Assembly: GCA_020350445.1 (NCBI GenBank)
Contig: CP070717.1
Span: 3,793,904-3,857,903 of the forward strand
Reading direction: 5' to 3'
From: Acidobacteriota bacterium
GTDB lineage: Bacteria; Acidobacteriota; UBA6911; RPQK01; JAPXNP01
DNA: 64,000 nucleotides
The notes beneath the pieces are model-generated. The model was not told the DNA's origin. It did not search any database and saw only the letters and a program-made list of their open reading frames with translations. Shown one piece after another: positions 27,205-53,062 of the stretch (position 1 is its first letter; each line of letters starts with the position of its first letter). A program made the translations under genes and the position numbers.

Positions 27205-27444
27205 ATGAGCCAAGAGGTAGGTGTCGAAGAAGTCGCTGAGGCGATGTTTGACCTGGTCAAGCAGACCCATGGGAAGAAGAACCTGAAGCCGATGGATCTG
27301 ATTAAGGCGATGATCCAGAAGTTCGGCGATGACCGGTGCTCTAAACCACTCTGTAAAAAGGCCATTCGGGAACTGATCGACGGTGGACGATGTATCTACT
27401 CTTACATTGGGGGAAGTTACGTCACTCTGCCACCAGAGGAGTAG
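27205..27444 (+). CDS. dsrD: DsrD (small winged-helix protein of reductive-type dsr operons)
   Basis: 79 aa, Lys-rich helix-turn-helix plus C-terminal …CIYSYIGGSYVTL resembling the DsrD YWSSGSTTMYGL wing. It sits 9 bp after dsrB. Confidence 0.8.
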   Translation: MSQEVGVEEVAEAMFDLVKQTHGKKNLKPMDLIKAMIQKFGDDRCSKPLCKKAIRELIDGGRCIYSYIGGSYVTLPPEE

Positions 27445-27590: not shown

Positions 27591-28976
27591 ATGACCATGC
27601 CAGTAGCACAGTCGCCTAATACACCTCGGATCATCGTGGCCGGACTCGGCGGAGACAGTGGAAAGACCCTGGTCTCAATCGGAATCTGCCGGGCCCTGGT
27701 TGAACGGGGGATGACCGTTTCGGGCTTTAAGAAGGGACCCGATTTCATCGATTCCGGATGGCTCCAGAAAGCCACTCGCCGTCCGGGCCGAAACCTGGAT
27801 ACCTTCCTAATGTCGGCCGAGGCGATCCGGACTTCGCTGGCTCGTGAAGCGGAGCGCTCGGATGTATCCGTCATCGAAGGGAACCGGGGACTCTTCGATG
27901 GCTTCGACTCATCCGGAACGCATTCGACAGCTGAATTGGCGAGAGTGACCCAGACCCCTTGTGTACTGGTCGTTGATGTCACCAAGGTGACCCGGACCGT
28001 GGCCGCCCTGGTGAAGGGTTGTCTGATCCTGGAGCCGGATGTGCCCCTGGCGGCCGTCATTCTCAATCGGGTCGCGACCGCCCGCCAGGAAAGGGTTATT
28101 CGGGAGTCACTTCAGCAGAGCGTCGGAATCCCCGTGGTGGGTGCGCTTCCTCGGCTGGATCGAGAGTATCTGCCGGGCCGGCATCTTGGCCTGCTGACAG
28201 CTGCTGAGCACCCCCAGGTTGAAGAAGTGCTCGACTTCATTGCCGCAACCATCCGGTCTTCGGTGGATCTCGATGCTGTCCTGAAGGTAGGTGCCTCAGC
28301 CAGGTCCTGGCCAGTCGTTGCGAGTCCCGGGTACCAGAAGAAACCCGCAAGTGTCAGGATCGGCGTTCTACAGGACGCGGCGTTTTCCTTCTACTACCCC
28401 GAGAACCTTGAGGCCCTCGAGCGGGAGGGGGCGATACTTCAGCCGGTCTCACCCCTCGGTGAAAGCGAGTTTCCCCAGCTTGACGGACTCTATGCCGGCG
28501 GGGGATTTCCCGAGGTTTATGCCGAGGCGCTGGCGGGGAATACCGGGTTTCGAGAAGGCCTTCGGCGGGCCTTGGCCGACGGGCTGCCGGTGTGGGCGGA
28601 ATGTGGTGGGTTGATTTACCTCTCCGAGGGCCTGCGGCTCGGGTCCCACTCGGTTCCGATGGCTCAGGCCCTGCCGGTCCATGTGGAGCAGTTGCCCAGG
28701 CCTCAGGGCCATGGCTACGTGGAGGGGGTCATCGATCGCGAGGACCGTCTCTTTGAACTGGGAGAGCATTTGCGGGGGCATGAATTTCATTACACCCGGA
28801 TCTGTGAGGGCAGTGCACGGCTGGCAACGGTCATGGATTTGAGTCGGGGTACTGGGATCGGAGCGGGTCGGGATGGCATTCGATGCGGATCTGTCTTTGC
28901 CTCCTATACGCACCTGCATGCTTTGAGTTCCGACAGATGGGCGCAGCGACTGGTGGCTGCGGCCGGAGGAAGATGA
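27591..28976 (+). CDS. dsrN: DsrN (cobyrinic acid a,c-diamide synthase homolog, proposed siroheme amidase)
   Basis: CbiA/CobB architecture: N-terminal ATPase (VAGLGGDSGKTLVS) plus C-terminal glutamine amidotransferase (WAECGGLIYLS). Located in the dsr operon. Confidence 0.8.
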   Translation: MTMPVAQSPNTPRIIVAGLGGDSGKTLVSIGICRALVERGMTVSGFKKGPDFIDSGWLQKATRRPGRNLDTFLMSAEAIRTSLAREAERSDVSVIEGNRGLFDGFDSSGTHSTAELARVTQTPCVLVVDVTKVTRTVAALVKGCLILEPDVPLAAVILNRVATARQERVIRESLQQSVGIPVVGALPRLDREYLPGRHLGLLTAAEHPQVEEVLDFIAATIRSSVDLDAVLKVGASARSWPVVASPGYQKKPASVRIGVLQDAAFSFYYPENLEALEREGAILQPVSPLGESEFPQLDGLYAGGGFPEVYAEALAGNTGFREGLRRALADGLPVWAECGGLIYLSEGLRLGSHSVPMAQALPVHVEQLPRPQGHGYVEGVIDREDRLFELGEHLRGHEFHYTRICEGSARLATVMDLSRGTGIGAGRDGIRCGSVFASYTHLHALSSDRWAQRLVAAAGGR

Positions 28977-29443
28977 TGAGTTTGCGCCAGCGTTTCATCG
29001 ATAGTTTTGATCGAGGCAAGAATGGGGATCTCGGCGATTTCGTCCGGTTGATCTCAAAGGAACCGGCGGTCGTCAGACACCTGTTAGGCATGACCTATCA
29101 CCCCGATCGCTCTAATCGGGAACTGGCGATCCGCGGACTGGGAATCGCGGCGAAACACCATCCCGAACTCGTTCAGGAGGTCATTCGCCGGCTGGTCTGG
29201 GCGATGAATGATGAGTCTGGAACCAATGGTTTGACGGCTCCAGACGTTCTCTGCGCAGTCGCTCGGGAGATGCCCGAGATTCTGCTGCCGTTTATTGCCG
29301 ATTTGAGCCGCCTGGCAGGAGATCCCGGCCTGCACAACGGGTTGAAGGCGCTCCTTCGCCAGATTTCCGAGGCGTTTCCTGGTGAGGTTGGACAGCGAAT
29401 GGGGAAGGAGTTGAGTCGGGGAAGAAGGAGGATCTCTCGATGA
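28972..29443 (+). CDS. Hypothetical HEAT-repeat (PBS-lyase-like) protein, translationally coupled to dsrN
   Basis: Start ATGATG overlaps the dsrN stop. Repeated alpha-helical RxLxxLGI-type HEAT units. The listed ORF's upstream extension lies inside dsrN and is probably not coding. Confidence 0.4.
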
Positions 29444-30009
29444 GCCGGTTGAGGGAACGTGTCAACTTGGAGAAGTGCCGCCAACTGGCTGAGGCCAATC
29501 CCGATTCCGCCGGGGCCCATCTCAGGCTGGGAACCGCACTGATGAAGGTGGGATTTGCCGGCAAGGCCGAGGCTTCGCTGGCTCGTGCTGTGGAGCTGGA
29601 TCCGACCTGCATCCAGGGCTGGGTCAACCTCGGAGGACTGCGGCTGGGCCGTTGGGATTTTCAGGGTTGTATCGAGGCAAATCGACGGGCTTTGGAACAG
29701 CAGCCCGATCTCGTTGAGGCTCTGTTCAATAAGGGCCTGGGGCATCTGTACGCCGGAGATACCGAGGCCATGTTGGATTGTTTTCGTCGGGTTGTGGAGT
29801 TGGATCCGGGCCGCGGCGGCGGCCAGTACTTTCTGGCTGTTGGGTTGCTGGCGACCGGTGACATAGCGGGTGCCGAGGAGCACCTGGGTCGGGCCGTCGG
29901 GCTGGGATATTCGCCCCATCCCGACTTCGTGAAGGCCATGGAGCGTGTTGCGAGGGAAGACTCGGTGACGGTCTTGGAGTTCGGTCCCGAGTCGAAACAT
30001 TCGGCGTGA
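29440..30009 (+). CDS. TPR-repeat protein
   Basis: Four to five TPR-like units (AHLRLGTALMKVGFAGKAEASLARAVELDP …). ATGA overlap with the preceding ORF. Confidence 0.55.
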   Translation: MSRLRERVNLEKCRQLAEANPDSAGAHLRLGTALMKVGFAGKAEASLARAVELDPTCIQGWVNLGGLRLGRWDFQGCIEANRRALEQQPDLVEALFNKGLGHLYAGDTEAMLDCFRRVVELDPGRGGGQYFLAVGLLATGDIAGAEEHLGRAVGLGYSPHPDFVKAMERVAREDSVTVLEFGPESKHSA

Positions 30010-30048
30010 CCAATCCACGCCGGGGTTTAGGAGAAAAGGAGAATAGTT

Positions 30049-30366
30049 ATGGCTGATTTTGTTGTTGGCGACATCACACTCGATATCGATGAAGACGGCT
30101 TCATTCAGCAGCCTGAGGCTTGGAATGAAGCGATTGCGAAAGCTCTCGCTAAGACCGAGGGAGTAGATGAACTGACTGAAGCACATTGGAAAGTAGTCAA
30201 CTATCTGCGCGACTACTACCTCGAGTTCGGTATTGCCCCAATGATCAGAAAGCTCTGCAAGTCGACGGGATTCAAACTGAAGGAAATCTACGAACTCTTT
30301 CCATCGGGACCGGCGAAGGGCGCCTGCAAGGTCGCCGGACTACCGAAACCAACCGGTTGCGTCTAG
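30049..30366 (+). CDS. dsrC: DsrC (TusE/DsrC-family sulfur carrier)
   Basis: 105 aa ending with the invariant DsrC arm …GFKLKEIYELFPSGPAKGACKVAGLPKPTGCV (both conserved Cys). Confidence 0.9.
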   Translation: MADFVVGDITLDIDEDGFIQQPEAWNEAIAKALAKTEGVDELTEAHWKVVNYLRDYYLEFGIAPMIRKLCKSTGFKLKEIYELFPSGPAKGACKVAGLPKPTGCV

Positions 30367-37794: not shown

Positions 37795-38736
37795 ATGGAA
37801 ACGGTTCCTTTCTGGTTCGCCTGTGCAGGGCTGCTCGCGTTTCTGGTCTCCGTGACCCTTCGAACGATGATGTGGTTAAGGATGCCGATCCACGTTCGGT
37901 GGGAACTCTACCCTGTGGCTCATGAGGGAAAAAGGGCCTCCTACGGTGGATCCTATCTCGAAGAGAGTGAATGGTGGAAGAAACCGAGGGAATTCTCGAT
38001 CTGGGGCGAAATCAGGGTAATGGTTCCCGAGATTCTGTTCCTGGTTGCCTTGCGCGAGCACAACCGAAAGCTCTGGTACCGATCCTTCCCGTTTCATTTT
38101 GGCCTCTACCTGATCACCGCCGGAACGGTTCTCATGGGAGGCTTTGCCCTGATGGGATCCCAATGGGAGAGTGCAGAAGGTTTTGCGGGAGTCCTTCGAA
38201 TGGGGATCATTGTATTCGGACTCGCCGGTCTTGTGCTGGGGTTGCTGGGAGCCGCAGGACTGCTGCACCGCAGAATGACAGCCCCTGAGTTGAAGGATTT
38301 CAGCGCTCCTGCCGACCTCTTCAACCTGGCGGTTTTTGTCGCGGTTTTTTCGGTTGCTCTAAGCGGGATTGTCCTGCTCGGAGTCGTGGAGTTTTTCGCT
38401 TCGTTGACCGGCCTGATCGGACAGATTGTGAAGTTGCCGTTTGGCCACGCGGAGGCCCAGGTCCCGGGTATCGTGGGTCTGTCTGTCGTCTTGATGAGTC
38501 TGCTGCTCGCCTACATCCCGTTGACCCACATGTCTCACTTTATCGGGAAGTACTTTGCCTACCATTCGGTTCGCTGGAATGATGCTCCCAATCTGAAGGG
38601 GAGCAAGCAGGAGAAGGTGATTCAGGAGGCCCTGGGCCAGCCTGTCAGCTGGTCTGCCTCCCACATCGCTGGAGATGGAAAGAAAAACTGGGTCGATGTG
38701 GCTACGACGATGCCCGGGGAGATCAAGGACAGATGA
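37795..38736 (+). CDS. NarI/HdrE/DsrM-like membrane b-type cytochrome subunit
   Basis: 313 aa, 5-6 TM helices, with FHFGLYL and a C-terminal HMSHF His pair positioned like the heme-b ligands of the NarI family. Translationally coupled to the following HdrD-like gene. Confidence 0.5.
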   Translation: METVPFWFACAGLLAFLVSVTLRTMMWLRMPIHVRWELYPVAHEGKRASYGGSYLEESEWWKKPREFSIWGEIRVMVPEILFLVALREHNRKLWYRSFPFHFGLYLITAGTVLMGGFALMGSQWESAEGFAGVLRMGIIVFGLAGLVLGLLGAAGLLHRRMTAPELKDFSAPADLFNLAVFVAVFSVALSGIVLLGVVEFFASLTGLIGQIVKLPFGHAEAQVPGIVGLSVVLMSLLLAYIPLTHMSHFIGKYFAYHSVRWNDAPNLKGSKQEKVIQEALGQPVSWSASHIAGDGKKNWVDVATTMPGEIKDR

Positions 38737-40334
38737 GGTCGAGTTGCATGTTTGCTGACTTCTCTCGCGGTGACGACTGCCTTTTCGAGATCAACCAAAA
38801 GGATCAGCAGCCGTTGCCTCCTCCATTTGATGACATCGATGAAGAACCTCTGTTCCGCAGGCTGACCGAGGAAGCGAAGAAGAAGTATGTCTTGCTGGAT
38901 GACACGATTGCAGTCAACATCCCAAAGCCTGAGACGCAGGAGGAGGAAGCGCAGCTGGTTAACAGCTTTCTTTCGGGGCTGCGACGCCTGGTCAGCCGGG
39001 AGGACAACTGGACGTTTCTCGAGCCGCTGATGATCTCACTCGAACACTGTGCCAAATGCCAGACCTGTTCGGAGGGCTGCCATATCTATGAGGAGAGTGG
39101 GCGGCATCCCTACTACCGTCCGTCCTATCGTTCGGAGATCCTGCGCAGGATATACTTCAAGTATCTGAAGAACAGTTCCACCTGGGTTCACGGTGATATC
39201 GAACTGAACTGGAAGACGGTCGCCCGTTTGATCGAACTCTCCTATCGCTGCAACCTCTGCCGTCGCTGTGCTCAGAGCTGCCCAATCGGAGTCGATAACG
39301 CCTTGCTAGCGCGGGAGATTCGAAAGGTGGCGAGCCAGGAAATGGGAATCGTACCGAAGGAACTGCATGATTCAGGCTCCATGCTGCAGCTCAAGGTCGG
39401 ATCCTCGACGGGGATGAATGCCATCGTGGCCAGGGATAACGTGGAGTTCATCGATGAAGACACGACCGACCGAACGGGAATTGCCGTCGAGACTCCCTGG
39501 GATAAGGAAGGTGCAGATATCCTGCTGATCCATAATGCCGGGGAGATCATGGCCTGGCCCGAAAACCCAGGGGGCTTCGCACTGTTGTTCAGCGCCGCAG
39601 GCCTCAGCTGGACGATGTCGAGTGACCTGGCGGCCTATGATGGGATCAACTACGGGGTCTGGTACGACGATTTCCAGTTCGCCCGCACTGCACTCCTGCA
39701 TTTGGAAGCGGCCCGGAAGCTGAAGGTCAAGAAGATCGTCATCGGAGAATGCGGACACGCTCATAAGGCTCTGTCAGTGATTGCCGACAAGGTGGTAACC
39801 GGAGACCTCAACATCCCGCGAGAAAGTGGGATCAACGTGTTGCGTGATATCGTTCGGGAGGGTCGCGTCAAGTTCGACAAGAGTCGCAACGATTTTCCGG
39901 TGACCCTGCATGATCCGTGCAACCTGGTGAGATTGATGGGAATTGTTTCGCCCCAGCGGGAGATCATCGAGGCGATCGTTCCCAAAGAGCGGTTCCGAGA
40001 AATGGAACCGCACGGGGTCGAGAATTACTGCTGTGGTGGAGGCTCCGGATTTGCCATCATGTCAGGACACAATTTCGCGCACTGGAGGCATCATGTCTCG
40101 GGCCGAAGAAAGCTCCGACAGGTCCTCGAAGCCTTTCAAGGAGAGGTGATGGATATGGAGCATCCCAAGTATGTCTGTGCACCCTGCAGCAACTGTAAAG
40201 GTCAGCTCAGAGACATCATTGCCTATTACGACGCCTGGGAAAGGGCCGGGATCTATTACGGGGGCCTGGTGGAATTGATGGTCAACGCCATGGTCGACGC
40301 CCAGCCCGGCTACATCGATTGGGAATGGCATTGA
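38733..40334 (+). CDS. HdrD/DsrK-like Fe-S protein with CCG domains (second DsrK-like paralog)
   Basis: Two [4Fe-4S] ferredoxin motifs (CAKCQTCSEGCH, CNLCRRCAQSCP) and CCG clusters (ENYCCGGGSGF, CAPCSNCKG). About 90-aa N-terminal extension. Confidence 0.7.
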   Translation: MRSSCMFADFSRGDDCLFEINQKDQQPLPPPFDDIDEEPLFRRLTEEAKKKYVLLDDTIAVNIPKPETQEEEAQLVNSFLSGLRRLVSREDNWTFLEPLMISLEHCAKCQTCSEGCHIYEESGRHPYYRPSYRSEILRRIYFKYLKNSSTWVHGDIELNWKTVARLIELSYRCNLCRRCAQSCPIGVDNALLAREIRKVASQEMGIVPKELHDSGSMLQLKVGSSTGMNAIVARDNVEFIDEDTTDRTGIAVETPWDKEGADILLIHNAGEIMAWPENPGGFALLFSAAGLSWTMSSDLAAYDGINYGVWYDDFQFARTALLHLEAARKLKVKKIVIGECGHAHKALSVIADKVVTGDLNIPRESGINVLRDIVREGRVKFDKSRNDFPVTLHDPCNLVRLMGIVSPQREIIEAIVPKERFREMEPHGVENYCCGGGSGFAIMSGHNFAHWRHHVSGRRKLRQVLEAFQGEVMDMEHPKYVCAPCSNCKGQLRDIIAYYDAWERAGIYYGGLVELMVNAMVDAQPGYIDWEWH

Positions 40335-40350
40335 GTTAGAAGGGGGAATC

Positions 40351-41670
40351 TTGATGGTTGAGAACAGTGACAGCAAGGATGATGTGAGTCGTTCGAACCT
40401 CTTGAAGCTGGAAGACTGGTGGGCCGTCTGGATTGGTGGGGGGCTTCTTCTGATCTGTGTCCTGGTGCCCGGGCTTACGATTCCCAAGGTCGGGAAGTGG
40501 TTGACGTCTCCATTCGAAGTGGTCAGCCCCGAGCTCGTGGTTGGCATTCTGATCCTGGGTCTGTTCCTGGCCCTTTTCCTTTCGGTCGGGACCTGGATTA
40601 TGGACTCCGTTGTCTGGACATTCCTGAGAGGCTTCTGGCTGGTCTTCCTGATCGCCGTGGTGTCCTACATTGTGGCTGAACAGCGGGCGATTGCCGCCAA
40701 GGGATTGGGGTACGCCCTCTGGGCCCTCCTGATCGGCCTGCTGGTCTCGAACACGGTCGGTGTCCCGGAATGGCTCCGGGGAGGTCTGAGGAGTGAGTTG
40801 TTCATCAAGATCGGCCTGGTTCTTCTGGGTGCCGAAATCCTGTTTGGGAATATCCTGGTATTGGGCCTTCCTGGTCTCTTCGTTGCCTGGCTGGTGACTC
40901 CGGTTGTCATCATCACCATGTTCTGGTTTGGCACACGGGTTCTCCGGATGTCGAGCAAGGCCCTGGTCATCGTCGTGGCTGCGGCCACTTCCGTCTGTGG
41001 GGTGTCGGCCGCGATTGCCGCGGCCGCTGCTTCGAGGGCGAAGAAGGAAGAACTGACCCTGGCGGTGGGCATGACGCTGATCTTTACCGTCCTGATGATG
41101 GTGGGAATGCCGCTCCTGGTGAAGACTTCGGGAATGGATGCCGTGGTGGGGGCCGCCTGGATTGGAGGGACGGTCGATGCCACGGGTGCCGTGGTTGCCG
41201 CCGGTTCCATGCTCGGTGAACGGGCCGAACAGGTCGCTGCCGTAGTGAAGATGATCCAGAACATCCTGATTGGAGTGGTGGCCTTCTTCATCGCGCTGTT
41301 CTGGGTGGCGCGGGTCGAACGGGAGCCATCCGGGCGGAGACCCGATGCCATGGAGGTCTGGCGGCGGTTTCCGAAATTCATCGTCGGATTCCTGGCCGCT
41401 TCGTTGATCTTCTCGTTCCTTTTGGAGCCCACGATGGGCTCAGATGCAGTCAGGGGAATCCTCGCCCAGTCAAAGGCCTTGAGGGGATGGTTCTTCTGCC
41501 TGGCATTCGTCAGTATCGGCCTGGAATCGAACTTCGTCGAACTCAAAAAGCAGATGGCGGGGGGCAAGCCGATCCAGCTCTATATCGTCGGCCAGAGCTT
41601 CAACCTGGTTTTGACTCTCCTGGCGGCTTATCTCGCTTTCGGGGGGATTCTTTTCGCCCTTGATTTCTGA
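40351..41670 (+). CDS. Integral membrane protein, YeiH/UPF0324-like (putative sulfate-exporter family)
   Basis: 439 aa with about 10-11 TM helices and Gly/Ala-rich helices (AAATSVCGVSAAIAAAAAS) reminiscent of the YeiH family. Assignment is tentative. Confidence 0.4.
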   Translation: MMVENSDSKDDVSRSNLLKLEDWWAVWIGGGLLLICVLVPGLTIPKVGKWLTSPFEVVSPELVVGILILGLFLALFLSVGTWIMDSVVWTFLRGFWLVFLIAVVSYIVAEQRAIAAKGLGYALWALLIGLLVSNTVGVPEWLRGGLRSELFIKIGLVLLGAEILFGNILVLGLPGLFVAWLVTPVVIITMFWFGTRVLRMSSKALVIVVAAATSVCGVSAAIAAAAASRAKKEELTLAVGMTLIFTVLMMVGMPLLVKTSGMDAVVGAAWIGGTVDATGAVVAAGSMLGERAEQVAAVVKMIQNILIGVVAFFIALFWVARVEREPSGRRPDAMEVWRRFPKFIVGFLAASLIFSFLLEPTMGSDAVRGILAQSKALRGWFFCLAFVSIGLESNFVELKKQMAGGKPIQLYIVGQSFNLVLTLLAAYLAFGGILFALDF

Positions 41671-41715
41671 GTCGGGAAGGATGCAAAGTCGAACGTCCCA
41701 GGGAAGAGGGAGTGA

Positions 41716-41988
41716 ATGACTGAGATTGTGGCGGGGACAGGGCAATTGAACGACAGGACACTGTTGTCGAGGGTGGGCTACCTCCTGTTTGGATTCCTCC
41801 TGCTCGGTGGATTCATCCTCCTGCTCGCGATCCCGGTATCGTGGCCGGGAGCCTGGGGAGAGACGTTTGACCACAATTTCGAGACGGGTCGGACAGCATC
41901 CAGCCTCTTCTACACGGAAGTCGAGGGTTACTGGGAGCTCGAAGCGGCTCTGAAGAAAGACGTGGTGGACGGCTCGATTAACCGGTAG
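41716..41988 (+). CDS. Small hypothetical membrane protein (one TM helix)
   Basis: 90-aa ORF with a hydrophobic segment LLFGFLLLGGFILLLAIPV. No recognisable family. Confidence 0.3.
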   Translation: MTEIVAGTGQLNDRTLLSRVGYLLFGFLLLGGFILLLAIPVSWPGAWGETFDHNFETGRTASSLFYTEVEGYWELEAALKKDVVDGSINR

Positions 41989-42379
41989 AGAACTCAATAT
42001 CGATCTGAGGGGGACTGGTCAGCGTGTTGTGGATGGGGCAGTCCCGCACGACCCGGGCCAGCGCTGAGACACGGTTCGGTGGAAATCCTTCCGGCAGGTC
42101 AACATCAACTATGATGGTTTTGATCCGCCTGGCACCGGTGTCGGGCAGTTCGAAGGTCAGACAGATTTCCAGCCCTTCAGTGCTGCAGCCGACAGTCTGA
42201 CAGTAGCGGGCAACTGTCATTCCGATGCAGGTCCCGAGTGAGCCGACGAGCATCTCGGTGGGACTCGGACCTCGATCCTTCCCTCCATCGGAATGGGAAT
42301 AGTCAACAGATAGCTGATGCTGGCGAACCCGAATCGTGAAATGTGGGGCCTCGACGGGCTCCACGCAGATCAAATCCAT
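41978..42379 (-). CDS. OsmC/Ohr-family protein
   Basis: 133 aa with the OsmC-like pattern including the paired Cys region (GSLGTCIGMTV … DCPIHNTL). Confidence 0.7.
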   Translation of the reverse strand: MDLICVEPVEAPHFTIRVRQHQLSVDYSHSDGGKDRGPSPTEMLVGSLGTCIGMTVARYCQTVGCSTEGLEICLTFELPDTGARRIKTIIVDVDLPEGFPPNRVSALARVVRDCPIHNTLTSPPQIDIEFSTG

Positions 42380-42418
42380 TACAGGCCTCCCGGACGCTGT
42401 ATCCGTTAAGTCAGTCTT

Positions 42419-43582
42419 CTACCGCCTTCTACCCATTTGCTCCGCATAGGTCATCGCCAGGGTTCTGTAGATCGCATGGGAGAACTTGGAGAAAGGCAGG
42501 TAGATCAAAAGCATGAAGGCCAGGATCAGGTGTATGAAGTAGACGGTGTATCCGGCGGTCACGGATTCGGCGAAACGCAGACCCTCGGTCACCAACCCGG
42601 TGACACCGACGAGAAAGAGGATTCCAAGAAACAGCCAGTCAAACTCGGTACTTCGCCCCATCGTCTTGGTATTGGCAATCCGCTCAACCATCGCGATCAG
42701 GCATCCCGCTACCAGGGCCAGGGCTCCAAGGTTCGCAATGATCTTCGCCGGGTCCCAGAAGGAGAAGGGGTAGGGAAGTGGAGTCTCCATGAAGGGATTG
42801 AGAACGTAGAGCAGGACAACGGCCCAGGTCGAGACCAGGAAAAGAGCCAGAAAACCGTAGAAGATCCCGAGGTGGGCCCGTTTCCGAGTGGCGGTGACCG
42901 TGCAGCCGCCAAACCGCTTGTGGGTGAGGAAATCCATAACCACGGTCAGGAAACTGGACAGGAGCGACTTGCTGGGGGCCTGTTCCGTTTGGAGGAGGTC
43001 CGACCGTTTGACTGCCCGCCAGAAACGGAGCCCTCCCAGGGCGACACTGACCAGCGAGAGTATCAGGAATGATGTGAAGAATCCGATCAGCAGCCAGTGG
43101 GGGAATAGGTTGGCATACTGCATTCCTGGGCCGTGATCCGAGGAGATTCCCAGCAGGGCGGCGAGCGGATCTCTGACCAGCAGTGCCAGCAGGAGGAGGA
43201 CGGCGGGGATCAGTATGAGTACTGGTAAGAAACCGGCCCGGTTCATCCAGGCACCCAGAAACTGCGGAGTAGCGTAGTGCCAGACCGCCTGCCGGCGGAT
43301 GGCGGAAAGAATCGTGCCCGGACTTGCCCCACGGGGGCATCTAGCGGAGCAATCTCCACAGTTGTGACAGAGCCAGATATCGGGATCGCCCAAGAGCCGG
43401 TTCTTGAGTCCCCACTGACTCCAAATGACTTCCTTTCTCGGGAACGGATTCTCCGCAGGGGACAGTTCGCAAACCGCCGAGCAGGTCGCGCACTGCATAC
43501 ACTTGAAGACATCCTCGCCACCCAGTTCAATAATCTGGTTCGTGAAGGCGATGTCAGGCTGAATCAGTACAGCATTACTCAT
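42419..43582 (-). CDS. qmoC: QmoC (ferredoxin domain fused to an HdrE/NarI-like membrane heme-b domain)
   Basis: N-terminal 2x[4Fe-4S] motifs (CMQCATCSAVCE, CHNCGDCSARCP) followed by 5-6 TM helices with conserved His. 387 aa. Lies downstream of qmoAB. Confidence 0.85.
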   Translation of the reverse strand: MSNAVLIQPDIAFTNQIIELGGEDVFKCMQCATCSAVCELSPAENPFPRKEVIWSQWGLKNRLLGDPDIWLCHNCGDCSARCPRGASPGTILSAIRRQAVWHYATPQFLGAWMNRAGFLPVLILIPAVLLLLALLVRDPLAALLGISSDHGPGMQYANLFPHWLLIGFFTSFLILSLVSVALGGLRFWRAVKRSDLLQTEQAPSKSLLSSFLTVVMDFLTHKRFGGCTVTATRKRAHLGIFYGFLALFLVSTWAVVLLYVLNPFMETPLPYPFSFWDPAKIIANLGALALVAGCLIAMVERIANTKTMGRSTEFDWLFLGILFLVGVTGLVTEGLRFAESVTAGYTVYFIHLILAFMLLIYLPFSKFSHAIYRTLAMTYAEQMGRRR

Positions 43583-43609
43583 GGTCTGTTACTCCCTCTG
43601 AGCTGGTCG

Positions 43610-45850
43610 TCAGAAGCCTTTGAACGGGTTCAAGCCGATCTCCTCGATTTCGTCGGCAAAGGCATTGATGATTTCGGGGAGTCGGTTGTAGTCAGCAATC
43701 GTGAGCTCTTCGAGCCGGACCCGTTCTTCTTCGAGTGCCAACTGGGTGAGCTTTTCGCGGACATTCTTGCCCCGGATGCCCATGATTTCGCTTCCCTTGA
43801 TGAAATGGCACTGGTAATGGTCTCCCGACTGACACCCAACGAGCAGTACGCCGTCGAATCCGCGGGAAAGGGCGTCTGCAATCCAGATCGTGTTGACCGA
43901 TCCGAGACAGCGGACCGGGATGAACCGGATAAAGGTGCTGAACCGCCTGCGCAGGATGCCGGCAGTGTCGAGGGCCGGATAGGCGTCGTTCTCGCAGATG
44001 AGACCGAGAATCCGTGGTTTTTCATCAAATTCATCGGGGATCTCGACCGCCTTGATCATCGACGAGACGATATCGATCGAGTAGTTCTTGAAAGAAATCA
44101 CCCGCTCGGGACAGGCTCCCAGGCAGATTCCACAGCGACGGCAGCGGGCAGGATTGGGCTTTGGGGTACCCTTTTCGTCTTCGTTGAGGACCCCGAATGG
44201 GCACTCCTCCGTGCACCGTTTGCACTGAGTACATCGCTGGAATGAGAATTCGGGAAAGGACATATCGTCCCAGCGTGGATGGACGGCCTTTCCCTGCGAG
44301 CCGAGCTCTACCGACTGAATCGCCTTGAGGGCGGCGGCGGTTCCATCACTGATTGCACCCTCGAAGTCTGTCGGAGCCTTAGCGCATCCGGCCAGGTAGA
44401 TCCCGGTTCTCCTCGATTCGTAGGGGAAACAGATGAAGTGGGAATCGGGAAAGCCATGCTGTAGTGTCGGGGTGTCCGGACCCTGGCGGTAGTTGAGATT
44501 CAAAACGCTCTCCAGGTCCAGTTGTTTGAGTTCTTCGAGTGTCGCCTTTGCTGTTTCGAGCTTGACGCCCTTCTCACCGCGGTCGATGACCGCCTGAGCA
44601 TCCCTCTGGCGTCGAATCACCTCGCCGTCGCTCACCCGTGGAACCATCCCGGTGGCCAGGACAACCAGATCGACATCGACGAGGATCTTCTCGCCCAACA
44701 TCGACTGGTCGACTTCGATCCTCAGGCGGCCGTCTTCTCGAGGCGTCACTCCGGCAACCTCGCCCTTTGCAAAGAGGATCCCTTTTAGTTCCTGCGCCCT
44801 TCGATAGAGGTCTTCGTACTGCGCCGGCGTGCGAATATCCTTGTAGAAGATCATCGTTTGAGTGTCGGGCAGCTTCTCGCGCAGCTGGATGGCCTGTTTG
44901 ATGGAGACTCTGCAGCAGACAGCCGAACAATAGGGAAGATGATTCGGATCCCGTGATCCGGCACACTGGATAAAGGCGATTTGGCGAATCGGTTTTCCAT
45001 CCGAGGGTCGAACCAGTTGGGGTTTGTTGAGCAGATCCTCCATTTCGATGTTGGTAACAATGTCGGGCGACTTCCCGTAAGAGAGGTGCTCGATTCGCGA
45101 AGCATCGTACGGCTTCCAGCCGGTCGCTTGAACAACTGCGCCGACTCGACTCACCCGGGTGGTACCGTTGGTACGCAGGCTGATATCGAACTGGCCGGGT
45201 TGTCCTTCGATGGAGGCGACGGTCGTCGAGGTCAAGACTTCGATGTTGGGATGGTCCAGCACACTCTTCAGGTCGCCGTTGAGGTTGGTTGCAGCGAGAC
45301 CACCATAGGGCGGTGAGTGTCTGAACTGGACCGGGAACCTCCGTTTCCAGCCACCAAGCTCAGCTTCCTTTTCCACGAGAATCGCCTTGAAGCCGGCTCG
45401 GGCCGATTCGAGAGCGGCCTTCATTCCACTGGTTCCTCCTCCGATGATCAGGATCGTCTTTTCGACATCCAGTGTGAAAGGATCAGGCAGGGCCGTCCTT
45501 TCCGCCCGGGCGATTCCCATTCTCAGGTAATCTTCCGCCATCATCTGGGTGTCTTCATCATTGGCTTCATGCGTCCAGACCACTTGCTCACGGAGGTTGA
45601 CCCGTTCCACGAGGCAGCCGGGGAGGTTGAACTGTTCGCTCTTGAATCGTGGGGAACAGGCGCCCAGAACGAGGGTATTGACACCGTCTCGGATGTGATC
45701 CTCGAGGGTCCGGACCCCGTCTGAGCGGCAGAGGCAGGGGTGGGTTTTACAGGCATAGGTTCCGCAGACGCCCGCCAGAGCGTCAAGATCCAGCGAGGTT
45801 CCAATCTCACAGCCTTCGCACAAATAGACAGCGATCTTCTTCTGATCCAT
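43610..45850 (-). CDS. qmoB: QmoB (HdrA-like flavoprotein with MvhD-like domain)
   Basis: 746 aa with FAD motif IIGGGTSGMKAALESA, ferredoxin-like Cys clusters (CTQCKRCTEECP, CRRCGICLGACP) and a C-terminal MvhD-like segment (VRCLGSV…LLVGCQSGDHYQCHF). Confidence 0.85.
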   Translation of the reverse strand: MDQKKIAVYLCEGCEIGTSLDLDALAGVCGTYACKTHPCLCRSDGVRTLEDHIRDGVNTLVLGACSPRFKSEQFNLPGCLVERVNLREQVVWTHEANDEDTQMMAEDYLRMGIARAERTALPDPFTLDVEKTILIIGGGTSGMKAALESARAGFKAILVEKEAELGGWKRRFPVQFRHSPPYGGLAATNLNGDLKSVLDHPNIEVLTSTTVASIEGQPGQFDISLRTNGTTRVSRVGAVVQATGWKPYDASRIEHLSYGKSPDIVTNIEMEDLLNKPQLVRPSDGKPIRQIAFIQCAGSRDPNHLPYCSAVCCRVSIKQAIQLREKLPDTQTMIFYKDIRTPAQYEDLYRRAQELKGILFAKGEVAGVTPREDGRLRIEVDQSMLGEKILVDVDLVVLATGMVPRVSDGEVIRRQRDAQAVIDRGEKGVKLETAKATLEELKQLDLESVLNLNYRQGPDTPTLQHGFPDSHFICFPYESRRTGIYLAGCAKAPTDFEGAISDGTAAALKAIQSVELGSQGKAVHPRWDDMSFPEFSFQRCTQCKRCTEECPFGVLNEDEKGTPKPNPARCRRCGICLGACPERVISFKNYSIDIVSSMIKAVEIPDEFDEKPRILGLICENDAYPALDTAGILRRRFSTFIRFIPVRCLGSVNTIWIADALSRGFDGVLLVGCQSGDHYQCHFIKGSEIMGIRGKNVREKLTQLALEEERVRLEELTIADYNRLPEIINAFADEIEEIGLNPFKGF

Positions 45851-45853
45851 GAT

Positions 45854-47104
45854 TTAACCTCGAACGACTTGGACGGCTTTCATGGCTGCTGCCGTCGCGT
45901 CACGGACAGCTTCAGCGACACCCACAGGCCGGCGGACACACCCGGCCGGAAAGATGGCAGATTCCTCTGCGTTCTCGACGACTAGGAAACCATGCTCATC
46001 GGCAGCGAGATTTCCGCTCAGCCGGGGAACCTGCGGAACCATCCCCGTTGCCAGGATCACCAGGTCGACAGGCTGCTGGATGCGCCGGCCGGTCAGCACG
46101 TTCTCGGCTTCGACGACAATCCGGGATTCTCCATTCCGGGGATAAACCTTTCCAACCTTACCTTTGACAAGGTGCAGCAGGGGATCCTGCTGGGCTTCAA
46201 GGTAGAAGTCCTCCATTCGACCTGGTGCCCTGAGATCGATGTAGAAGAGATAGATCTCCGCTTTGGGATACTGTTGCCGGATATAGCGGACCTGTTTGAG
46301 CGAGGCCAGGCAGCAGACAGAGGAGCAGTGTCGAAGGTAGTTCTCGTCGCGGGATCCGGCACACTGGATGAAGGCAGCTGACTCGATTGGCTCTTGATCG
46401 GAAGGGCGGAGAATCTGTCCCCCAGTCGGGCCATCGGGTGCAGCCAGACGCTCAAGTTCGACGTTGGTGATGACGTTGGGGTTCGACGCGTAGCCAAGGT
46501 TGTCAATCTTTTCGGGAGGGTAGGGCCTCCAACCCGTCGCCAGGACCACGGAATCGATCTCGATTTCAAATGTCTCAGGCTGCATCTTCAGATCGACCGC
46601 ATCATTGGGACATTCGGCGATGCACTGGCTGCACTCCTCTCCCAGGCAGTCAATCGGATCAATAGTGAAGATCGGCGGATACGCTGCGGGAGAAGGGAAG
46701 TAGATGGCCCTCGTCTGGCTCAGGCCATAGTTGAAAGGGTCGGGCCGTCGGACCGGGCAGAACGGGATACAGGCCCCGCAGGCGGTGCACTGGTCAGTGA
46801 CAAAGCGGGGCGACCGGGTGATCGAGACGGTGTAGTTCCCCGGTTCTCCTGAAATGCTGTGGACCTCGGATTGTGTGTAACAGGTGATCTTCGAGTTGTT
46901 CCTGAGCTGTCGAAAGTTAATCTCGAGGCCACAGGATGGAGGACAGAGTTTCGGAAAATAGAGGTTCATCTGAGAGACACGACCGCCCAGGTAGGGCTGC
47001 TTCTCGATCAGGACCACCTCCGCTCCCGCTTGAGAAGCTTCCACGGCGGCGGAAATCCCGGCGATCCCGCCCCCTACGACGAGCACGCGTTTACTACTAC
47101 CCAT
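45854..47104 (-). CDS. qmoA: QmoA (HdrA-like FAD flavoprotein)
   Basis: 416 aa with N-terminal VLVVGGGIAGISAAVEASQAG and HdrA-type Cys motifs (CTACGACIPFCP). Immediately upstream of qmoB. Confidence 0.85.
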   Translation of the reverse strand: MGSSKRVLVVGGGIAGISAAVEASQAGAEVVLIEKQPYLGGRVSQMNLYFPKLCPPSCGLEINFRQLRNNSKITCYTQSEVHSISGEPGNYTVSITRSPRFVTDQCTACGACIPFCPVRRPDPFNYGLSQTRAIYFPSPAAYPPIFTIDPIDCLGEECSQCIAECPNDAVDLKMQPETFEIEIDSVVLATGWRPYPPEKIDNLGYASNPNVITNVELERLAAPDGPTGGQILRPSDQEPIESAAFIQCAGSRDENYLRHCSSVCCLASLKQVRYIRQQYPKAEIYLFYIDLRAPGRMEDFYLEAQQDPLLHLVKGKVGKVYPRNGESRIVVEAENVLTGRRIQQPVDLVILATGMVPQVPRLSGNLAADEHGFLVVENAEESAIFPAGCVRRPVGVAEAVRDATAAAMKAVQVVRG

Positions 47105-47150
47105 AGCGTCTTACACCCCAAATAGCCAGTTGGCAGCGGTTCCGGCCGCT

Positions 47151-47999
47151 TCAACGTGAATAGGATTTACTGGTCACTTCGGTTTTCTGTCGGACACTCT
47201 TGCGCACCTCGCGCCGGATCTCGACGGTGTCTTCGCCGAAAAGGCAGAAGCGAAGCCATCGGTAACCCAGGCGCAGGAGGGCTCGATCCTCCCTGCGGGC
47301 CTCTTCTACCGTCACCTCATCGATGGAGAATTTCTGCAGGAAGGTGCTTTCAAAGACGAAACGACGGAACTTGTCCAGGTCGTAGAGCACCATCACCAGC
47401 ATGTTCATCTTCGACGGCTCGAGTTGCCCCCCGTCGAGGAAAAAAGGATGCAAACTGATCTGCTTGAAGTCCTCTCCGTGGAACTCATACTTCTCCGCCC
47501 CCTGGTTTCTGATCCATTCCCGAATGGTCTGCCGGGTGTTGGACGAATGCCCTTCGCAGGGATCCTCTTCGATAAGGAAGAAGAAGGGTTCATCCGTCTC
47601 CTCTCCCGGAGAGGCCAGTCCAACGGGATACATCCGGCAAGCCCAGGGGCGGTCGCTGTAGACCAAACATCCTTCCGGGCGCACGAATGGACAGCTTCTT
47701 CGCTCATCATTCTGCATCCGGAGTAGAACCACGGGGAACTTCTGCTGAGCGGAGAAGGGAAGGATCGTGTACCGGTCGAGGAACTCGGTCGATGAGATCT
47801 TCAAGCCGGTCCGGAGGCGGAGGACATCGTAAGGAGTCAGCGCGATGTTGACATCGGCGCAGCACTGATTGAAACAGCCGAGACCAGGCTTGCATTGAAA
47901 GTCAAAAGCATCAGATTCCTTGAATCTGGGTGCGTCTTCGAGAATTGAGAGTGGAAACTGAGTCGTTGAATCATTCATCGGGCTGTTCATCTTCCTCAA
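47151..47999 (-). CDS. YkgJ/UPF0153-like Cys-cluster protein (CxxCxxCC putative Fe-S or zinc chelating domain)
   Basis: Motif CKPGLGCFNQCCADV near the N-terminus plus a second Cys group (CPFVRPEGCLVY…CRMYP). 282 aa. Lies between aprA and qmoA. Confidence 0.45.
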   Translation of the reverse strand: MRKMNSPMNDSTTQFPLSILEDAPRFKESDAFDFQCKPGLGCFNQCCADVNIALTPYDVLRLRTGLKISSTEFLDRYTILPFSAQQKFPVVLLRMQNDERRSCPFVRPEGCLVYSDRPWACRMYPVGLASPGEETDEPFFFLIEEDPCEGHSSNTRQTIREWIRNQGAEKYEFHGEDFKQISLHPFFLDGGQLEPSKMNMLVMVLYDLDKFRRFVFESTFLQKFSIDEVTVEEARREDRALLRLGYRWLRFCLFGEDTVEIRREVRKSVRQKTEVTSKSYSR

Positions 48000-48312
48000 G
48001 AATGAATTCTCGGAGCGCCGTTGCCGACCAGACCGGTAAGGGGCCGGACGTCCCGGTGCGCGGATTGAACCTCAGCCGGTAGGATGCAGAGACATCGAAC
48101 TTCTCGCGCATCCTCTGCCAACCCCGAACGAAATAGGGACACTCGTCATTGAAACAGACGTAGAACCTCTCGGGTTTCCAGGCTGAATCGGGAGGAGGTA
48201 TCCAGGCGGTTAGTTTTTCAGAGCAGTGTGGACAAGTCGGAACTTCCCCTTCCATTTCCTCTCCCTCGGGACGCATTTCCCAGGACTCAACGGCGTGGGA
48301 TGTTGAGACCAT
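47971..48312 (-). CDS. Small hypothetical protein with a four-Cys zinc-ribbon-like motif
   Basis: CPHC … CFNDECP arrangement and an acidic C-terminus. Overlaps the start of the downstream ykgJ-like ORF. Coding status uncertain. Confidence 0.3.
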   Translation of the reverse strand: MVSTSHAVESWEMRPEGEEMEGEVPTCPHCSEKLTAWIPPPDSAWKPERFYVCFNDECPYFVRGWQRMREKFDVSASYRLRFNPRTGTSGPLPVWSATALREFILEEDEQPDE

Positions 48313-48371: not shown

Positions 48372-50248
48372 TTATGGAACCAGTTCGATGATCGGACGCT
48401 TGATCATCTCCCAGGTGCCCTTGCCCGGATCATACTTGCAGTTGACGAAGACCTTCCAGTCGTCCTGCATCTTTGGCTGGTCGGTCCTGAAGTAGTAACC
48501 GGGCCACCGGGTTTCCTGCCGGAAGAGAATACTCCGGACATGGGCTTCGGCCTGCCACATCCGGTGGATGTTCTCCCAACAGCGCATCAACTCATGCAGA
48601 TCCTCGGCCGCGAGCTTCTTCGAGTCCTCGCGGAGGAAGTCGAGCAGGCTCAAACCCTTTTCCAGCAACGTGGCACTCGTCTTGAAGGCGCTCGAGACAC
48701 CACCGGCATACTCATCCATGATCTTCTGCAACCGGAACATGAACTGCTTCGGTCGAATGTACTCAGGGTTGATATCCGGGTCGGTACTCTTGCCGCTGAA
48801 TTCATCGAACAGTGCCACCGGGGCCAGAACCTGGGCCTTGAGTTGTTCGACATCGGGCGATGCCTCAGTTAGAGCGGCACCCTGCTCGACAATGTAGCGG
48901 ACTGCTGACTTCGCGGCAATCCGCCCCTCGGCGTGGGAGCCCGAAGAGAACTTGTGACTCGAAGCACCCGAGGCGTCACCGGCGCAAAAGACTCCGGCTG
49001 TCGTCGCCATGTTGCAGTAGCCCCACTTGTACTCCTCAGGAGCCATGTCTTCGGGACCGCTGACCCAGGCGCCCGAGGCACCGGAATGGGAGCCGATGAA
49101 GTACGGTTCCGCTGCAGCGATTTCAGAAGGCTTCTCATCGGGTGCGACATTCGTCGCCGCCCAGAGAATGGCTTGTGAAATGGTCATATCGAGGAAGTCT
49201 TCCCAGGCTTCCGACTCCAACTCCTTGAGCTTTCTCTTCCGCTTCTTCTCATCCGGCTCGGCGGTCGACAGATTCTCGATCGCTTCGGCCGTCTGCATGA
49301 AGATCGGGCCCTTGCCTTCGTCCACATCGAGCATCATCAGGTAATTGCGGAGGTTGGCCGGAACCGGTTTGACCTTTCCATAAGGGACCCAGTTCTCCAA
49401 CTCAGGCCGGCGGGTCTCCATGTAGTTCTCACCGAGTGCGTTCGTCGCCGAGACTTGAAGAGAAGGAACCAGGCTCCAACGGGACCGTAGGCATCCTTGA
49501 AACGGACCGGGATGAACCGGACTTCCTGGCAGGTCATCTCGGCACCTGCCTGGATCGTGAAGTAGGCACTGGATCCAGAATTCCAGGGTGGGTACCAGGC
49601 TCGGCCCAGTCCTTCACCCGAGGACCTGGGCTTGAAGACGTGAACGGCACCGCCCATGGCGACCAGCGTCGCCTTCGCCTTGAATACGTAGAACTTGTTC
49701 TCCCGGACGCTGAAACCGATCGCGCCGGCACAGCGGTTTCCTTCCATCAAGGGGCCGACAATAAAGATGCGCTCGTAAATGTTGTCCAGGCCGATCGCGT
49801 TCTTTGCCGCTTCGGCGACAACGACCTTATAGGATTCGCCGTTGATCATGAGCTGCCAACGGCCTTCGTGGACGTACTTGCCCTCCTCGTCGGTCCAGAT
49901 CGGCAGTCCCCACTTTTCGAAGAGATGGACCGACGAATCGACGTGGCGCGCAATATTGGCAACCAGGTCTTCGCGGGTGATGCCCATCAGGTCATTCTTG
50001 ACGTAACGGACATAGTCTTCGAGCGTGTTTTCTCCGTCTTTGAGCCCGACATACTGGTTAATGGCTGAAAGTCCCATGGCCACGGCGCCGCTTCGATCCA
50101 CGGCGGCCTTGTCGACCAGGGTTACGGTGAGATTGTGCTTCTTGGCCCAGTAGGCAGCCTCCACAGCTGCGCCGCAAGCGGCCATTCCTCCGCCGACGAT
50201 TAGCAGGTCGGTACGGACTTCTACAGTTTCAAAATCGGCAACTTTCAT
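48372..50248 (-). pseudogene. aprA: Adenylylsulfate (APS) reductase alpha subunit aprA, interrupted by an apparent 1-bp frameshift near 49450
   Basis: ORF 49337-50248 encodes the AprA N-terminus (FAD motif DLLIVGGGMAACGAA … GPVGAWFLLFK). ORF 48372-49421 in another frame encodes the rest (…VSATNALGENYMETRRPELENW… to the C-terminus). The two frames join between the FK and VSATN codons, around plus-strand gagacttgaag. Confidence 0.75.
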
Positions 50249-50325: not shown

Positions 50326-50763
50326 CTAGAGCTTGGCAACTTCCGACAGACCGAGAGAGGCCGGTTCGGTGAAGAGTGCAGGTCCATTCAGGTCATCGTT
50401 CGAGACCTCCCAGCCGCCGTTGGGAACAGCAGTGCCTTCGGGGGTCGTCCGAATGGGGAATTTGAATCGTTTGAGGGTTCCGTTGCGAAACTTGAGTGTC
50501 CACATGATCGCGTCAGTGCTGCGCATGCAGGTCACACTCGCTCCGAGAGGCACAAAGTCAGCATAACCGCGGACTTCAACTGCCTGAGTGGGGCAAATCT
50601 TGACGCAGTTGTAACACTCCCAGCACATCGCAGGATCCCGTTTGTAGGCCTTCATGATGTCTGCATTGAGCACCATCAGGTCATTCGGGCAGATGTGCTG
50701 GCAAGCCGTTTTGTCGAGCGCCTTGCAGCCGTCGCACTTTTCAGGATTCACGTAGCTTGGCAT
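50326..50763 (-). CDS. aprB: Adenylylsulfate reductase beta subunit
   Basis: Start at MPSYVNPEKCDGCKALDKTACQHICPNDLM (GGAGGG RBS upstream), with a second cluster CWECYNCVKICP and a C-terminal tail. 146 aa. Confidence 0.85.
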   Translation of the reverse strand: MPSYVNPEKCDGCKALDKTACQHICPNDLMVLNADIMKAYKRDPAMCWECYNCVKICPTQAVEVRGYADFVPLGASVTCMRSTDAIMWTLKFRNGTLKRFKFPIRTTPEGTAVPNGGWEVSNDDLNGPALFTEPASLGLSEVAKL

Positions 50764-50989
50764 GTTCCCCTTCCCTCCTTGGTCTTGTTCTAATGTCTTC
50801 AGACACCAGTTGCGAAACCGTTGCGCAGAGACCCTTGCGAGTCGCCGCGGATACACCGTTACCGTTCTAATTTCAAAGCAATTTACATACCTATCAGAGG
50901 CAATGTAGAAAACCCGGGAATATTAAAGAGGGAGTTAAATTAAAACCGAATGCTGGGGCAATAGGCTCAGGATGGTGGGTTAAGTTCCA

Positions 50990-51090
50990 CATCGAAAGGG
51001 TTCAACCCGCTTGAGCCTCCGGGTCCCAGTTGTTGGAGGGGAGGTGAGACTGGCGTCCTGGGTGGAGAACTCAAGCGGGTATCGGCTGAA
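50990..51090 (-). promoter_or_regulatory. Structured segment in the long aprB upstream/leader region (nested inverted repeats)
   Basis: 10-bp inverted repeat cccgcttgag / ctcaagcggg separated by about 60 nt, with an inner cctcc/ggagg pair. It lies within the 440-bp intergenic region between arsR and aprB, which also holds an AT-rich stretch next to aprB. Confidence 0.25.
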
Positions 51091-51295
51091 GGAAGGGGAG
51101 CCTCGGCGCATTTCTGGTGGTGGCAACCAGAGGGGGGCGCAACTATCCGGCCGGCTTGGAGGAGATTGGCCGGCATAGCGGCTCGCAGGCGACCTTCCAG
51201 GGGGAGGAGAGTGATCTGCCTATTCCTTCCTTCAGACGAGTTGGGAAAGTCCACTGAATATCGATCGATCCCGGCTTGAAGAGCGGTCCAAAGCA

Positions 51296-51676
51296 TCATT
51301 CTGGACCTCCCTCAGCCTGGGAAGCGGTTCGAGAATTGAAGCGCTGACGCTGGCCAGGTTCAAAATGGAGCTGGCAGCAGCCCAGATTGATGGCGTTCAA
51401 TTTCCCGGGAACAAGGGTGCTCTCGGTGGCCCGGTAGATCACCGATTTTCCCTGGCGATCACCTTTGACCAGGCCTGCCTCGCGCAGGACCCTGAGATGG
51501 TGGGACAAAAGACTTTGTTCGACAAACAGCCTTTCGCTCAACTGGCCGACCGAGCAGGGTTCAAGCAAAAGCACCTCCATCACCGCCAGTCGTGTTCGGT
51601 CAGAAAGAACCTTTAGCTTGCCCGCACAATCGAGTTTCTTACTCAAATTGTCCACCTGTCGAGCGGTCCACCGCAC
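51296..51676 (-). CDS. ArsR/SmtB-family transcriptional regulator
   Basis: 126 aa with an ArsR-type wHTH (LSDRTRLAVMEVLLLEPCSVGQLSERLFVEQSLLSHHLRVLREAGLV). Located between sat and aprBA. Confidence 0.75.
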   Translation of the reverse strand: MRWTARQVDNLSKKLDCAGKLKVLSDRTRLAVMEVLLLEPCSVGQLSERLFVEQSLLSHHLRVLREAGLVKGDRQGKSVIYRATESTLVPGKLNAINLGCCQLHFEPGQRQRFNSRTASQAEGGPE

Positions 51677-51802: not shown

Positions 51803-53062
51803 TTATGTCAAAACCGCCTGAGACTGATAGTAGTGCATCAGGATTTCAGCGACTTCCGGTCTGGAAAACTCGACGGGCAATGGCTGCCCCTGCGACAACA
51901 TTTCGCGTACCTTGGTACCCGAAAGGAACACGTAATCTTCTTTCTTGTGATCGGGATGGTCACGCATCATGACCACCTTGTTGAGTCGCTTGGACCAGGC
52001 GGTGTGATCAGCTTCGAAGATCTCGATCTCAAGGGCCTCCTTTGGAACTTCATCATGGAAGATGGCCTGAGCATCGAACGGGCCGTAGTAGGAACCGACT
52101 CCGGCATGATCACGCCCAACGATCAGGTGGGTGCAGCCACTGTTCTGCCTGAAGACCGCATGAAGGACTGCCTCCCGGGGGCCGGCATAGAGCATGTCGA
52201 ATCCATAGCCCGTAATCAGCACTGTCTTCGGCGGGAAATACAGTTCCACCATCTTGCGGATACAGGCATCCCGAACGTCGGCAGGGATATCTCCCGCTTT
52301 GAGCTTTCCGAGAAGCATGTGAATGAGGATTCCGTCGGCCTTGACTGCTTCGTAAGCCATGCGGCAGAGCTCTTCATGGGCGCGGTGCATCGGGTTGCGG
52401 GTCTGAAACGCGACAACCTTCTCCCAGCCCAGAGCCGACATTTCAGCGCGAATCTGGTAGGCCGTGCGGAAGGTTTCCGGAAAATCGCTTTCGAAATAGG
52501 AGAAGTTCAAGACTTCGATCGGTCCCGAAATACAGGTCTTGCCGCTGCTGTTAAAGGCTGCGACACCGGGATGGTTCGGATCCTGGGTCCGGAAGATCTT
52601 TCCGGTCATCCGTTCCATCTCGTCCGAACTGAACTCTTCGACATCCATCACGGTCTGGATCGCGAGGATGGGGTTGCCGGGTACATTCGGATCCCGCAGC
52701 GCAATCCGTTTCGCTTTTCCAATCACCGAACCATCGGGAACGACATTGAGAATTGGGATAGGGAAAAAGAGGCCCGCTTTCGTGTGCATCGAGTCAGCGG
52801 TTGCCAGGGCGTCCGACCTGTCCATGAATCCGGTCAGGGGATTGAAGTATCCGCTCCCGAGCATTACGGCATTGGCTGCCGCTGCCGAAGAAACAGTCAG
52901 TGAAGGCAGTCCCGCCGCTTCCTCGAGCAGAGCTTTCCGGCGATTACTGTCCTGGATGTAAAGTGGGTTTAGTTCATCTGATCCATGCGGTCTGATCATG
53001 AGTTTGCGCTCCAATTCAGCTTCAGTTCTGGGTTCAGGAATCCGCTGCCGAGGGTCCTCCAT
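51803..53062 (-). CDS. sat: Sulfate adenylyltransferase (ATP sulfurylase)
   Basis: QTRNPMHRAHEEL and GRDHAGVGSYYGPFDAQ motifs. 419 aa if the first Met is used; the alternative start MIRPHGS is 21 codons downstream. Confidence 0.9.
   Translation of the reverse strand: MEDPRQRIPEPRTEAELERKLMIRPHGSDELNPLYIQDSNRRKALLEEAAGLPSLTVSSAAAANAVMLGSGYFNPLTGFMDRSDALATADSMHTKAGLFFPIPILNVVPDGSVIGKAKRIALRDPNVPGNPILAIQTVMDVEEFSSDEMERMTGKIFRTQDPNHPGVAAFNSSGKTCISGPIEVLNFSYFESDFPETFRTAYQIRAEMSALGWEKVVAFQTRNPMHRAHEELCRMAYEAVKADGILIHMLLGKLKAGDIPADVRDACIRKMVELYFPPKTVLITGYGFDMLYAGPREAVLHAVFRQNSGCTHLIVGRDHAGVGSYYGPFDAQAIFHDEVPKEALEIEIFEADHTAWSKRLNKVVMMRDHPDHKKEDYVFLSGTKVREMLSQGQPLPVEFSRPEVAEILMHYYQSQAVLT

Follow-up and report, generated by a model that had tools for sequence, protein, structure and literature searches.

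Does the bacterium behind this sequence have a working aprA, the gene for the alpha subunit of adenylylsulfate reductase, or has it lost one? We analysed a stretch of 64,000 nucleotides (the window) from an Acidobacteriota metagenome-assembled genome (MAG) deposited in GenBank as one contig of 5,129,482 bp (5.13 Mb). Between positions 24893 and 55407 the window carries a dsr-qmo-apr-sat locus, comprising dsrA, dsrB, dsrN, dsrMKJOP, cysG, a second DsrMK-like pair, a YeiH-type transporter gene, osmC, qmoCBA, ykgJ, an ogr-like zinc-finger gene, aprA, aprB, arsR and sat. The protein accessions of the locus are consecutive from UCF36264 (DsrA) to UCF36290, with ArsR out of series (UCF39434), and aprA is the sole gene in this run that has no protein accession. 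Such a gap is what one would expect to see if the gene had been flagged as a pseudogene in the deposited record.

The original prediction held that aprA is split by a 1-bp frameshift, its N-terminal frame turning to nonsense and the conserved continuation lying in another frame. The translations, the alignment of homologs and a one-base repair all bear this out. The gene lies on the minus strand and is read in frame from 50248 to the codon CGG at 49450-49448. Beyond this codon one base is absent, and the remainder follows in the −1 frame down to the native stop at 48372. The 5′ part (49448-50248; codons 1-267, MKVADFET...GPVGAWFLLFKSR) matches positions 1-259 of the aprA model TIGR02061 and Pfam FAD_binding_2. 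It belongs to an upstream ORF of 303 aa (49337-50248) with a typical AprA N-terminus, which is genuine until ...GPVGAWFLLFKSR. This ORF reads ...RFKDAYGPVGAWFLLFKSR and then runs into an out-of-frame tail (49337-49447) of 36 nonsense codons (RRTHSVRTTWRPAGLSWRTGSLMERSNRFRPTSAIT) and a TGA; the tail has no counterpart in any of the 19 aligned homologs. The −1 frame, reading ...VSATNALGENYMETRRPELENW..., is open through to the AprA C-terminus at 48372. This 3′ part (48372-49447; ATNALGENYMETRRP...IIELVP, stop) matches TIGR02061 positions 269-616 and aligns with the AprA of Archaeoglobus fulgidus (PDB 1JNR); called mechanically from its first ATG, it is an ORF of 349 aa (48372-49421). The third (+1) frame across the junction is interrupted by stops.

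Where exactly is the base missing? 1JNR aligned with residues 5-624 of the joined sequence (E = 5e-238) without a gap at the junction, and therefore exactly one base is missing. The window DNA at the junction is TTCAAGTCTCGG-CGACG, and the site (49447-49450) reads TCT CGG^CGA where homologs have TCN CGN GCN. Frame 0 still encodes the Ser-Arg of the family, so the absent base is a G from a GGG run (CGG|GCG), which is cut to GG at 49449-49448 of the minus strand to give CGG|CG. On the plus strand this appears as gtcgCCgagac, with CC at 49448-49449, instead of the expected gtcgCCCgagac. When every possible single-base insertion was tried, only a G at 49447-49449 yielded FLLFKSRATNALGEN. The original prediction had put the lesion at the border of the FK and VS codons, but its true place, after CGG, is two codons downstream of that. 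We rejected the FK|VS junction (FKVSATN) because no homolog has V-S there and frame 0 keeps S-R; the repair gives FKSRATN. The repaired ORF measures 1878 nt and encodes 625 aa, not the ~660 aa once expected of the restored protein.

We scored the repaired protein with the NCBIfam equivalog model for aprA, TIGR02061, which has a curated cut-off of 641.75 bits. The 625-aa protein reached 924.8 bits over model positions 1-616 of 616, and the deposited N- and C-terminal fragments, with 421 bits (1-259) and 467 bits (269-616), both stayed below the cut-off. The deposited sequence holds two ORFs in place of a single uninterrupted reading frame. The genomic context is that of an aprA, with aprB directly upstream and sat and qmoABC at the same locus. 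Judged from sequence, the two deposited ORFs are complementary halves of one ordinary aprA. Compared with the AprA of A. fulgidus (PDB 1JNR/2FJA) and those of MAGs, the window copy is one G short and is read as two ORFs. Its repaired product is 85-86% identical over the full length to its closest homologs among the intact AprA proteins of uncultured Acidobacteriota MAGs (P0001-P0013).

Distant Acidobacteriota MAGs (loci L001, L002, L014, L050 and L076) share the gene order aprB-aprA-ogr-ykgJ-qmoABC, and their YkgJ-type and ogr-like proteins are 42-53% identical to those of the window. Two of these loci, L001 and L002, are in Microflora Danica-type 'MFD' bins and have the same neighbourhood as the window, but the Qmo proteins of the window are only 55-64% identical to theirs, so the window represents a different lineage.

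The original prediction described the other pathway genes as intact, and this was confirmed by full-length Pfam or NCBIfam matches for sat, aprB, qmoA/B/C, dsrA/B, dsrN and dsrMKJOP; apart from aprA, the genes listed for the locus are intact by Pfam. All of the following lie on the minus strand and were recovered by exact look-up. aprB (50326-50763; 145 aa, UCF36288.1) scored 194.7 bits on TIGR02060 (cut-off 135.65), and sat, encoding ATP sulfurylase (51803-52999; 398 aa as annotated, UCF36289.1), matches Pfam PUA_2 and ATP-sulfurylase over the full length. qmoC, qmoB and qmoA (42419-47104; UCF36283-36285, QmoA being UCF36285) are intact by Pfam. Between aprA and qmoA sit the genes for a YkgJ-type CxxCxxCC protein (UCF36286) and an ogr/Delta-like zinc-finger protein (UCF36287), which together span 47151-48255 and were also assigned by Pfam.

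Several other features of the region were recorded. Downstream of the canonical dsrMKJOP and after cysG, the plus strand carries a second NarI-like/DsrK-like pair (37795-40334; 313 aa and 533 aa) with Nitrate_red_gam, Fer4_8 and CCG domains, followed by the YeiH-type (Cons_hypoth698) membrane protein. A 79-aa ORF between dsrB and dsrN (27205-27444, plus strand) occupies the place that DsrD has in many dsr operons and has no Pfam or NCBIfam match. Neither a 186-aa ORF (28883-29443, plus strand) nor a 337-aa antisense ORF (29173-30186, minus strand) belongs to a Pfam family; the first shares 94 nt with the end of dsrN and has a TPR protein after it. Start calls for the ArsR-type regulator between aprB and sat (51296-51676, minus strand) are inconsistent, giving 94 aa in GenBank (UCF39434.1), 116 aa in a Logan contig and 126 aa for the longest ORF, and the ~440 bp between its gene and aprB (50857-51295) hold no credible gene. 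Just upstream of dsrAB, on the minus strand (22643-24445), a 600-aa transporter of the CitMHS/Na-sulfate-symporter type with two TrkA_C domains could serve as the sulfate importer of the pathway.

The comparison with close relatives that had been proposed as a check was run at the junction. The motif FLLFK-(S/A)-x-A-(T/V)-(N/S), mostly with S-R-A-T-N, is present without a gap in all 96 intact homologs examined, namely 19 aligned full-length proteins and the 77 related loci at which the motif could be located. Those 19, the closest full-length homologs, are 79-86% identical and 623-634 aa long; each has FLLFK-S/A-x-ATN and none is interrupted. The DNA is likewise uninterrupted at the junction in 77 of 77 loci. 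One of these, locus L065, has exactly TCTCGGGCGACC at the position of the lesion and reads TTCAAGTCTCGGGCGACC. The block just before the lesion (RFIPVRFKDAYGPVGAWFLLFK) is invariant in all 20 aligned AprA sequences and is the most conserved block of the protein.

We also looked for the gene in the same species. Homology searches with the repaired protein, the C-terminal fragment and a 98-aa junction peptide found no same-species AprA, whole or split, the best match being 86% identical, and a scan of genome contigs gave intact relatives only, at ≤86% identity; the source contig itself was not among the best 80 matches, probably because a split match ranks low. An exact 33-nt pattern across the site, with either G count, had no match among JGI metagenome contigs. 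By exact look-up, both AprA fragments were absent from 153 billion gene positions and from a collection of 15 billion proteins, so these collections hold no independent copy of the frameshifted allele.

Could the cell decode the gene as it stands? Full-length AprA would be restored by programmed ribosomal frameshifting (−1 or +2) or by transcriptional slippage. Physically, such a shift could happen, since the two frames share 277 nt in which the −1 frame has no stop; the downstream part, too, is perfectly conserved. In its direction (−1), the change required matches programmed frameshifting of the dnaX type. The window differs from that system in lacking a slippery heptamer, a stimulatory structure and conservation of the frameshift in orthologs. 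The 277-nt overlap contains no X XXY YYZ heptamer, strict or relaxed, and no A/T run of ≥5 or G/C run of ≥4 on which slippage could occur. The RNA around and after the site (136 nt) folds no better than shuffled sequences, its minimum free energy being −35.8 kcal/mol where the shuffles average −39.1 (z=+0.93). A +1 shift would meet stops, and none of the 19 aligned homologs or 77 related loci has a frameshift at this position. We regard recoding as very improbable.

A second way to keep the enzyme would be to translate AprA as two separate polypeptides, the 349-aa C-terminal fragment starting from the in-frame ATG at 49421. This ATG lies 27 nt past the lesion and has a Shine-Dalgarno-like GGTGAG six bases upstream. 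Both elements are, however, merely the conserved coding sequence for L-G-E-N-Y-M-E, which is also found in intact homologs. The split enzyme would lose ATNALGENY and gain the 36-residue nonsense tail, and neither fragment attains the cut-off of the aprA model. No homolog is naturally split, and the short AprA proteins in databases have nonsense ends typical of errors. We give a two-piece enzyme hardly any chance. Programmed frameshifting and a two-piece enzyme are thus both essentially excluded.

Does the gene show decay? We compared the two halves of aprA with their homologs and saw neither a second lesion nor relaxed constraint. The window AprA retains 364 of 367 columns that are invariant in 19 homologs, and the three exceptions are conservative (H/N, E/D and V/I). 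The ratio of divergence in the C-terminal part to that in the N-terminal part was 1.95, compared with 1.86-2.16 in seven intact homologs. Because one base repairs the whole ORF, the invariant columns are kept and the ratio is normal, the gene is not an old, decaying pseudogene. On the sequence evidence, if the lesion is biological at all, it must be extremely young.

An extremely young lesion would be a real deletion, caused by a replication slip in the GGG run and fixed or at high frequency in the population. That a very recent loss of function of this kind took place is possible, but we hold it to be rather unlikely. It would mean that a natural population has just knocked out APS reductase and kept sat, aprB, qmoABC and the whole dsr system, a scenario to which we give a minor share of the probability. 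Such a lineage would be left with no functional APS reductase and unable to respire sulfate, with the reduction of sulfite via DsrAB/DsrMKJOP still open to it. Sulfate-reducing Acidobacteriota can be facultative and able to respire oxygen (PMC10564751), so that the sulfate pathway may be dispensable at times and its loss perhaps tolerated. Speaking against the deletion being real are the intact halves of the gene, the intact partner genes and the 96 of 96 homologs that have no interruption. Moreover, real pseudogenes are depleted among core, highly expressed genes of energy metabolism.

Strain variation in the neighbourhood bears on the same question. Same-species Logan contigs (L081-L084; SRR31444229, SRR15144438 and SRR31444209) span positions 39322-47162 of the window, which include qmoCBA, and end before aprA. 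They were 99.3-99.4% identical to the window, and the differences between strains comprised 57 synonymous, 5 nonsynonymous and 15 intergenic substitutions. This predominance of synonymous changes indicates that the compared coding sequence, including qmoCBA, is under purifying selection in the species. The known job of QmoCBA is to feed electrons to AprAB. Selection on the region, and the intact state of partner genes that are known mainly for serving AprA, count against a real loss of aprA and in favour of a base missing from the assembly.

The same contigs also provide evidence in the other direction. We found no indels over ~12 kb of pairwise alignment to them (~7.8 kb of unique window sequence), so the assembly is not riddled with indels. 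aprA is also the only split gene in the 64-kb window among ~56 ORFs scanned against Pfam. A clean assembly and a run of only three bases, a weak context for a sequencing error, both speak for a real deletion and weigh against an assembly error. Replication slippage in vivo leaves the same kind of lesion. The public record has no AprA protein, so any polishing by the depositors left the lesion in place, which again fits a real deletion.

Nevertheless, we take the most likely origin of the missing G to be a consensus or polishing indel that was left uncorrected when a metagenome was assembled from long reads. A single metagenome contig of 5.13 Mb suggests long-read sequencing, in practice probably the only route to a contig of chromosome scale. 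Deletions in homopolymers are the typical residual error of long-read consensus sequences, and 'frameshifted' pseudogene calls that arise from such residual indels are a known class of artefact. The window resembles this class in its one-base homopolymer deletion (GGG to GG), its chromosome-scale metagenome contig, an otherwise perfect gene, which a single G restores to a full equivalog-scoring AprA with no trace of decay, and the lack of a public protein. It differs in that the run is only 3 bases long and in that the rest of the 64-kb window has no further frameshift.

The position of the lesion, directly after the most conserved AprA block, is also consistent with an error. Reads from co-occurring sulfate reducers that were used for polishing could cross-map at the invariant block and thereby mis-polish the consensus. 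The search with the junction peptide retrieved from other public assemblies many short AprA pieces with nonsense ends, and several of these (among P0241, P0246, P0266, P0267, P0271 and P0272) are on long contigs and broken near the same conserved block. In one case, locus L085 (P0271; ENA ERZ25039509 contig_161062, 2990-3200), the indel is in the homologous TCTCGGG run, and a second G-run indel lies 170 nt upstream of the first. These pieces suggest that frameshifted aprA sequences in G-runs by this block recur in error-prone assemblies. The assembly of the window is, however, much cleaner than error-rich examples such as L085.

In our explanation, then, the deposited aprA would be an ordinary full-length gene for the alpha subunit of adenylylsulfate reductase from which one G of a GGG run was lost in the deposit. 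The part that we infer is that the base is missing from the assembly and not from the DNA. The two possibilities would differ in their peptides: an intact (or somehow decoded) aprA would give the junction peptides FKSRATNALGENYMETR / DAYGPVGAWFLLFKSRATNALGENYMETR, and a real frameshift would give SRRRTHSV.... The original prediction had ranked a sequencing or assembly indel first, recent inactivation second and programmed frameshifting last, and every test that was run (repair, decay, recoding, homologs and MAG origin) agrees with this order.

At the molecular level we are dealing with an ordinary one-base frameshift, such as standard annotation already handles. Its consequence lies in how the genome is read. 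Automated pathway calls would score this closed MAG as aprA-negative and file it as a sulfite reducer, not a sulfate reducer, although a single base separates the gene from a perfect AprA. The case is a practical warning against metabolic conclusions drawn from a missing aprA. Should the deletion be real, it would provide a neat, if modest, case in which a facultative acidobacterial sulfate reducer has lost sulfate activation very recently and may have been caught at the first step toward a specialist for sulfite, thiosulfate or organosulfonates. Alternatively, a real deletion could be a loss-of-function polymorphism that is maintained in a facultative sulfate reducer. With an assembly indel, the explanation that we favour, the organism itself would have an intact AprA of 625 aa and a complete sat-aprBA-qmoABC-dsr pathway for sulfate reduction.
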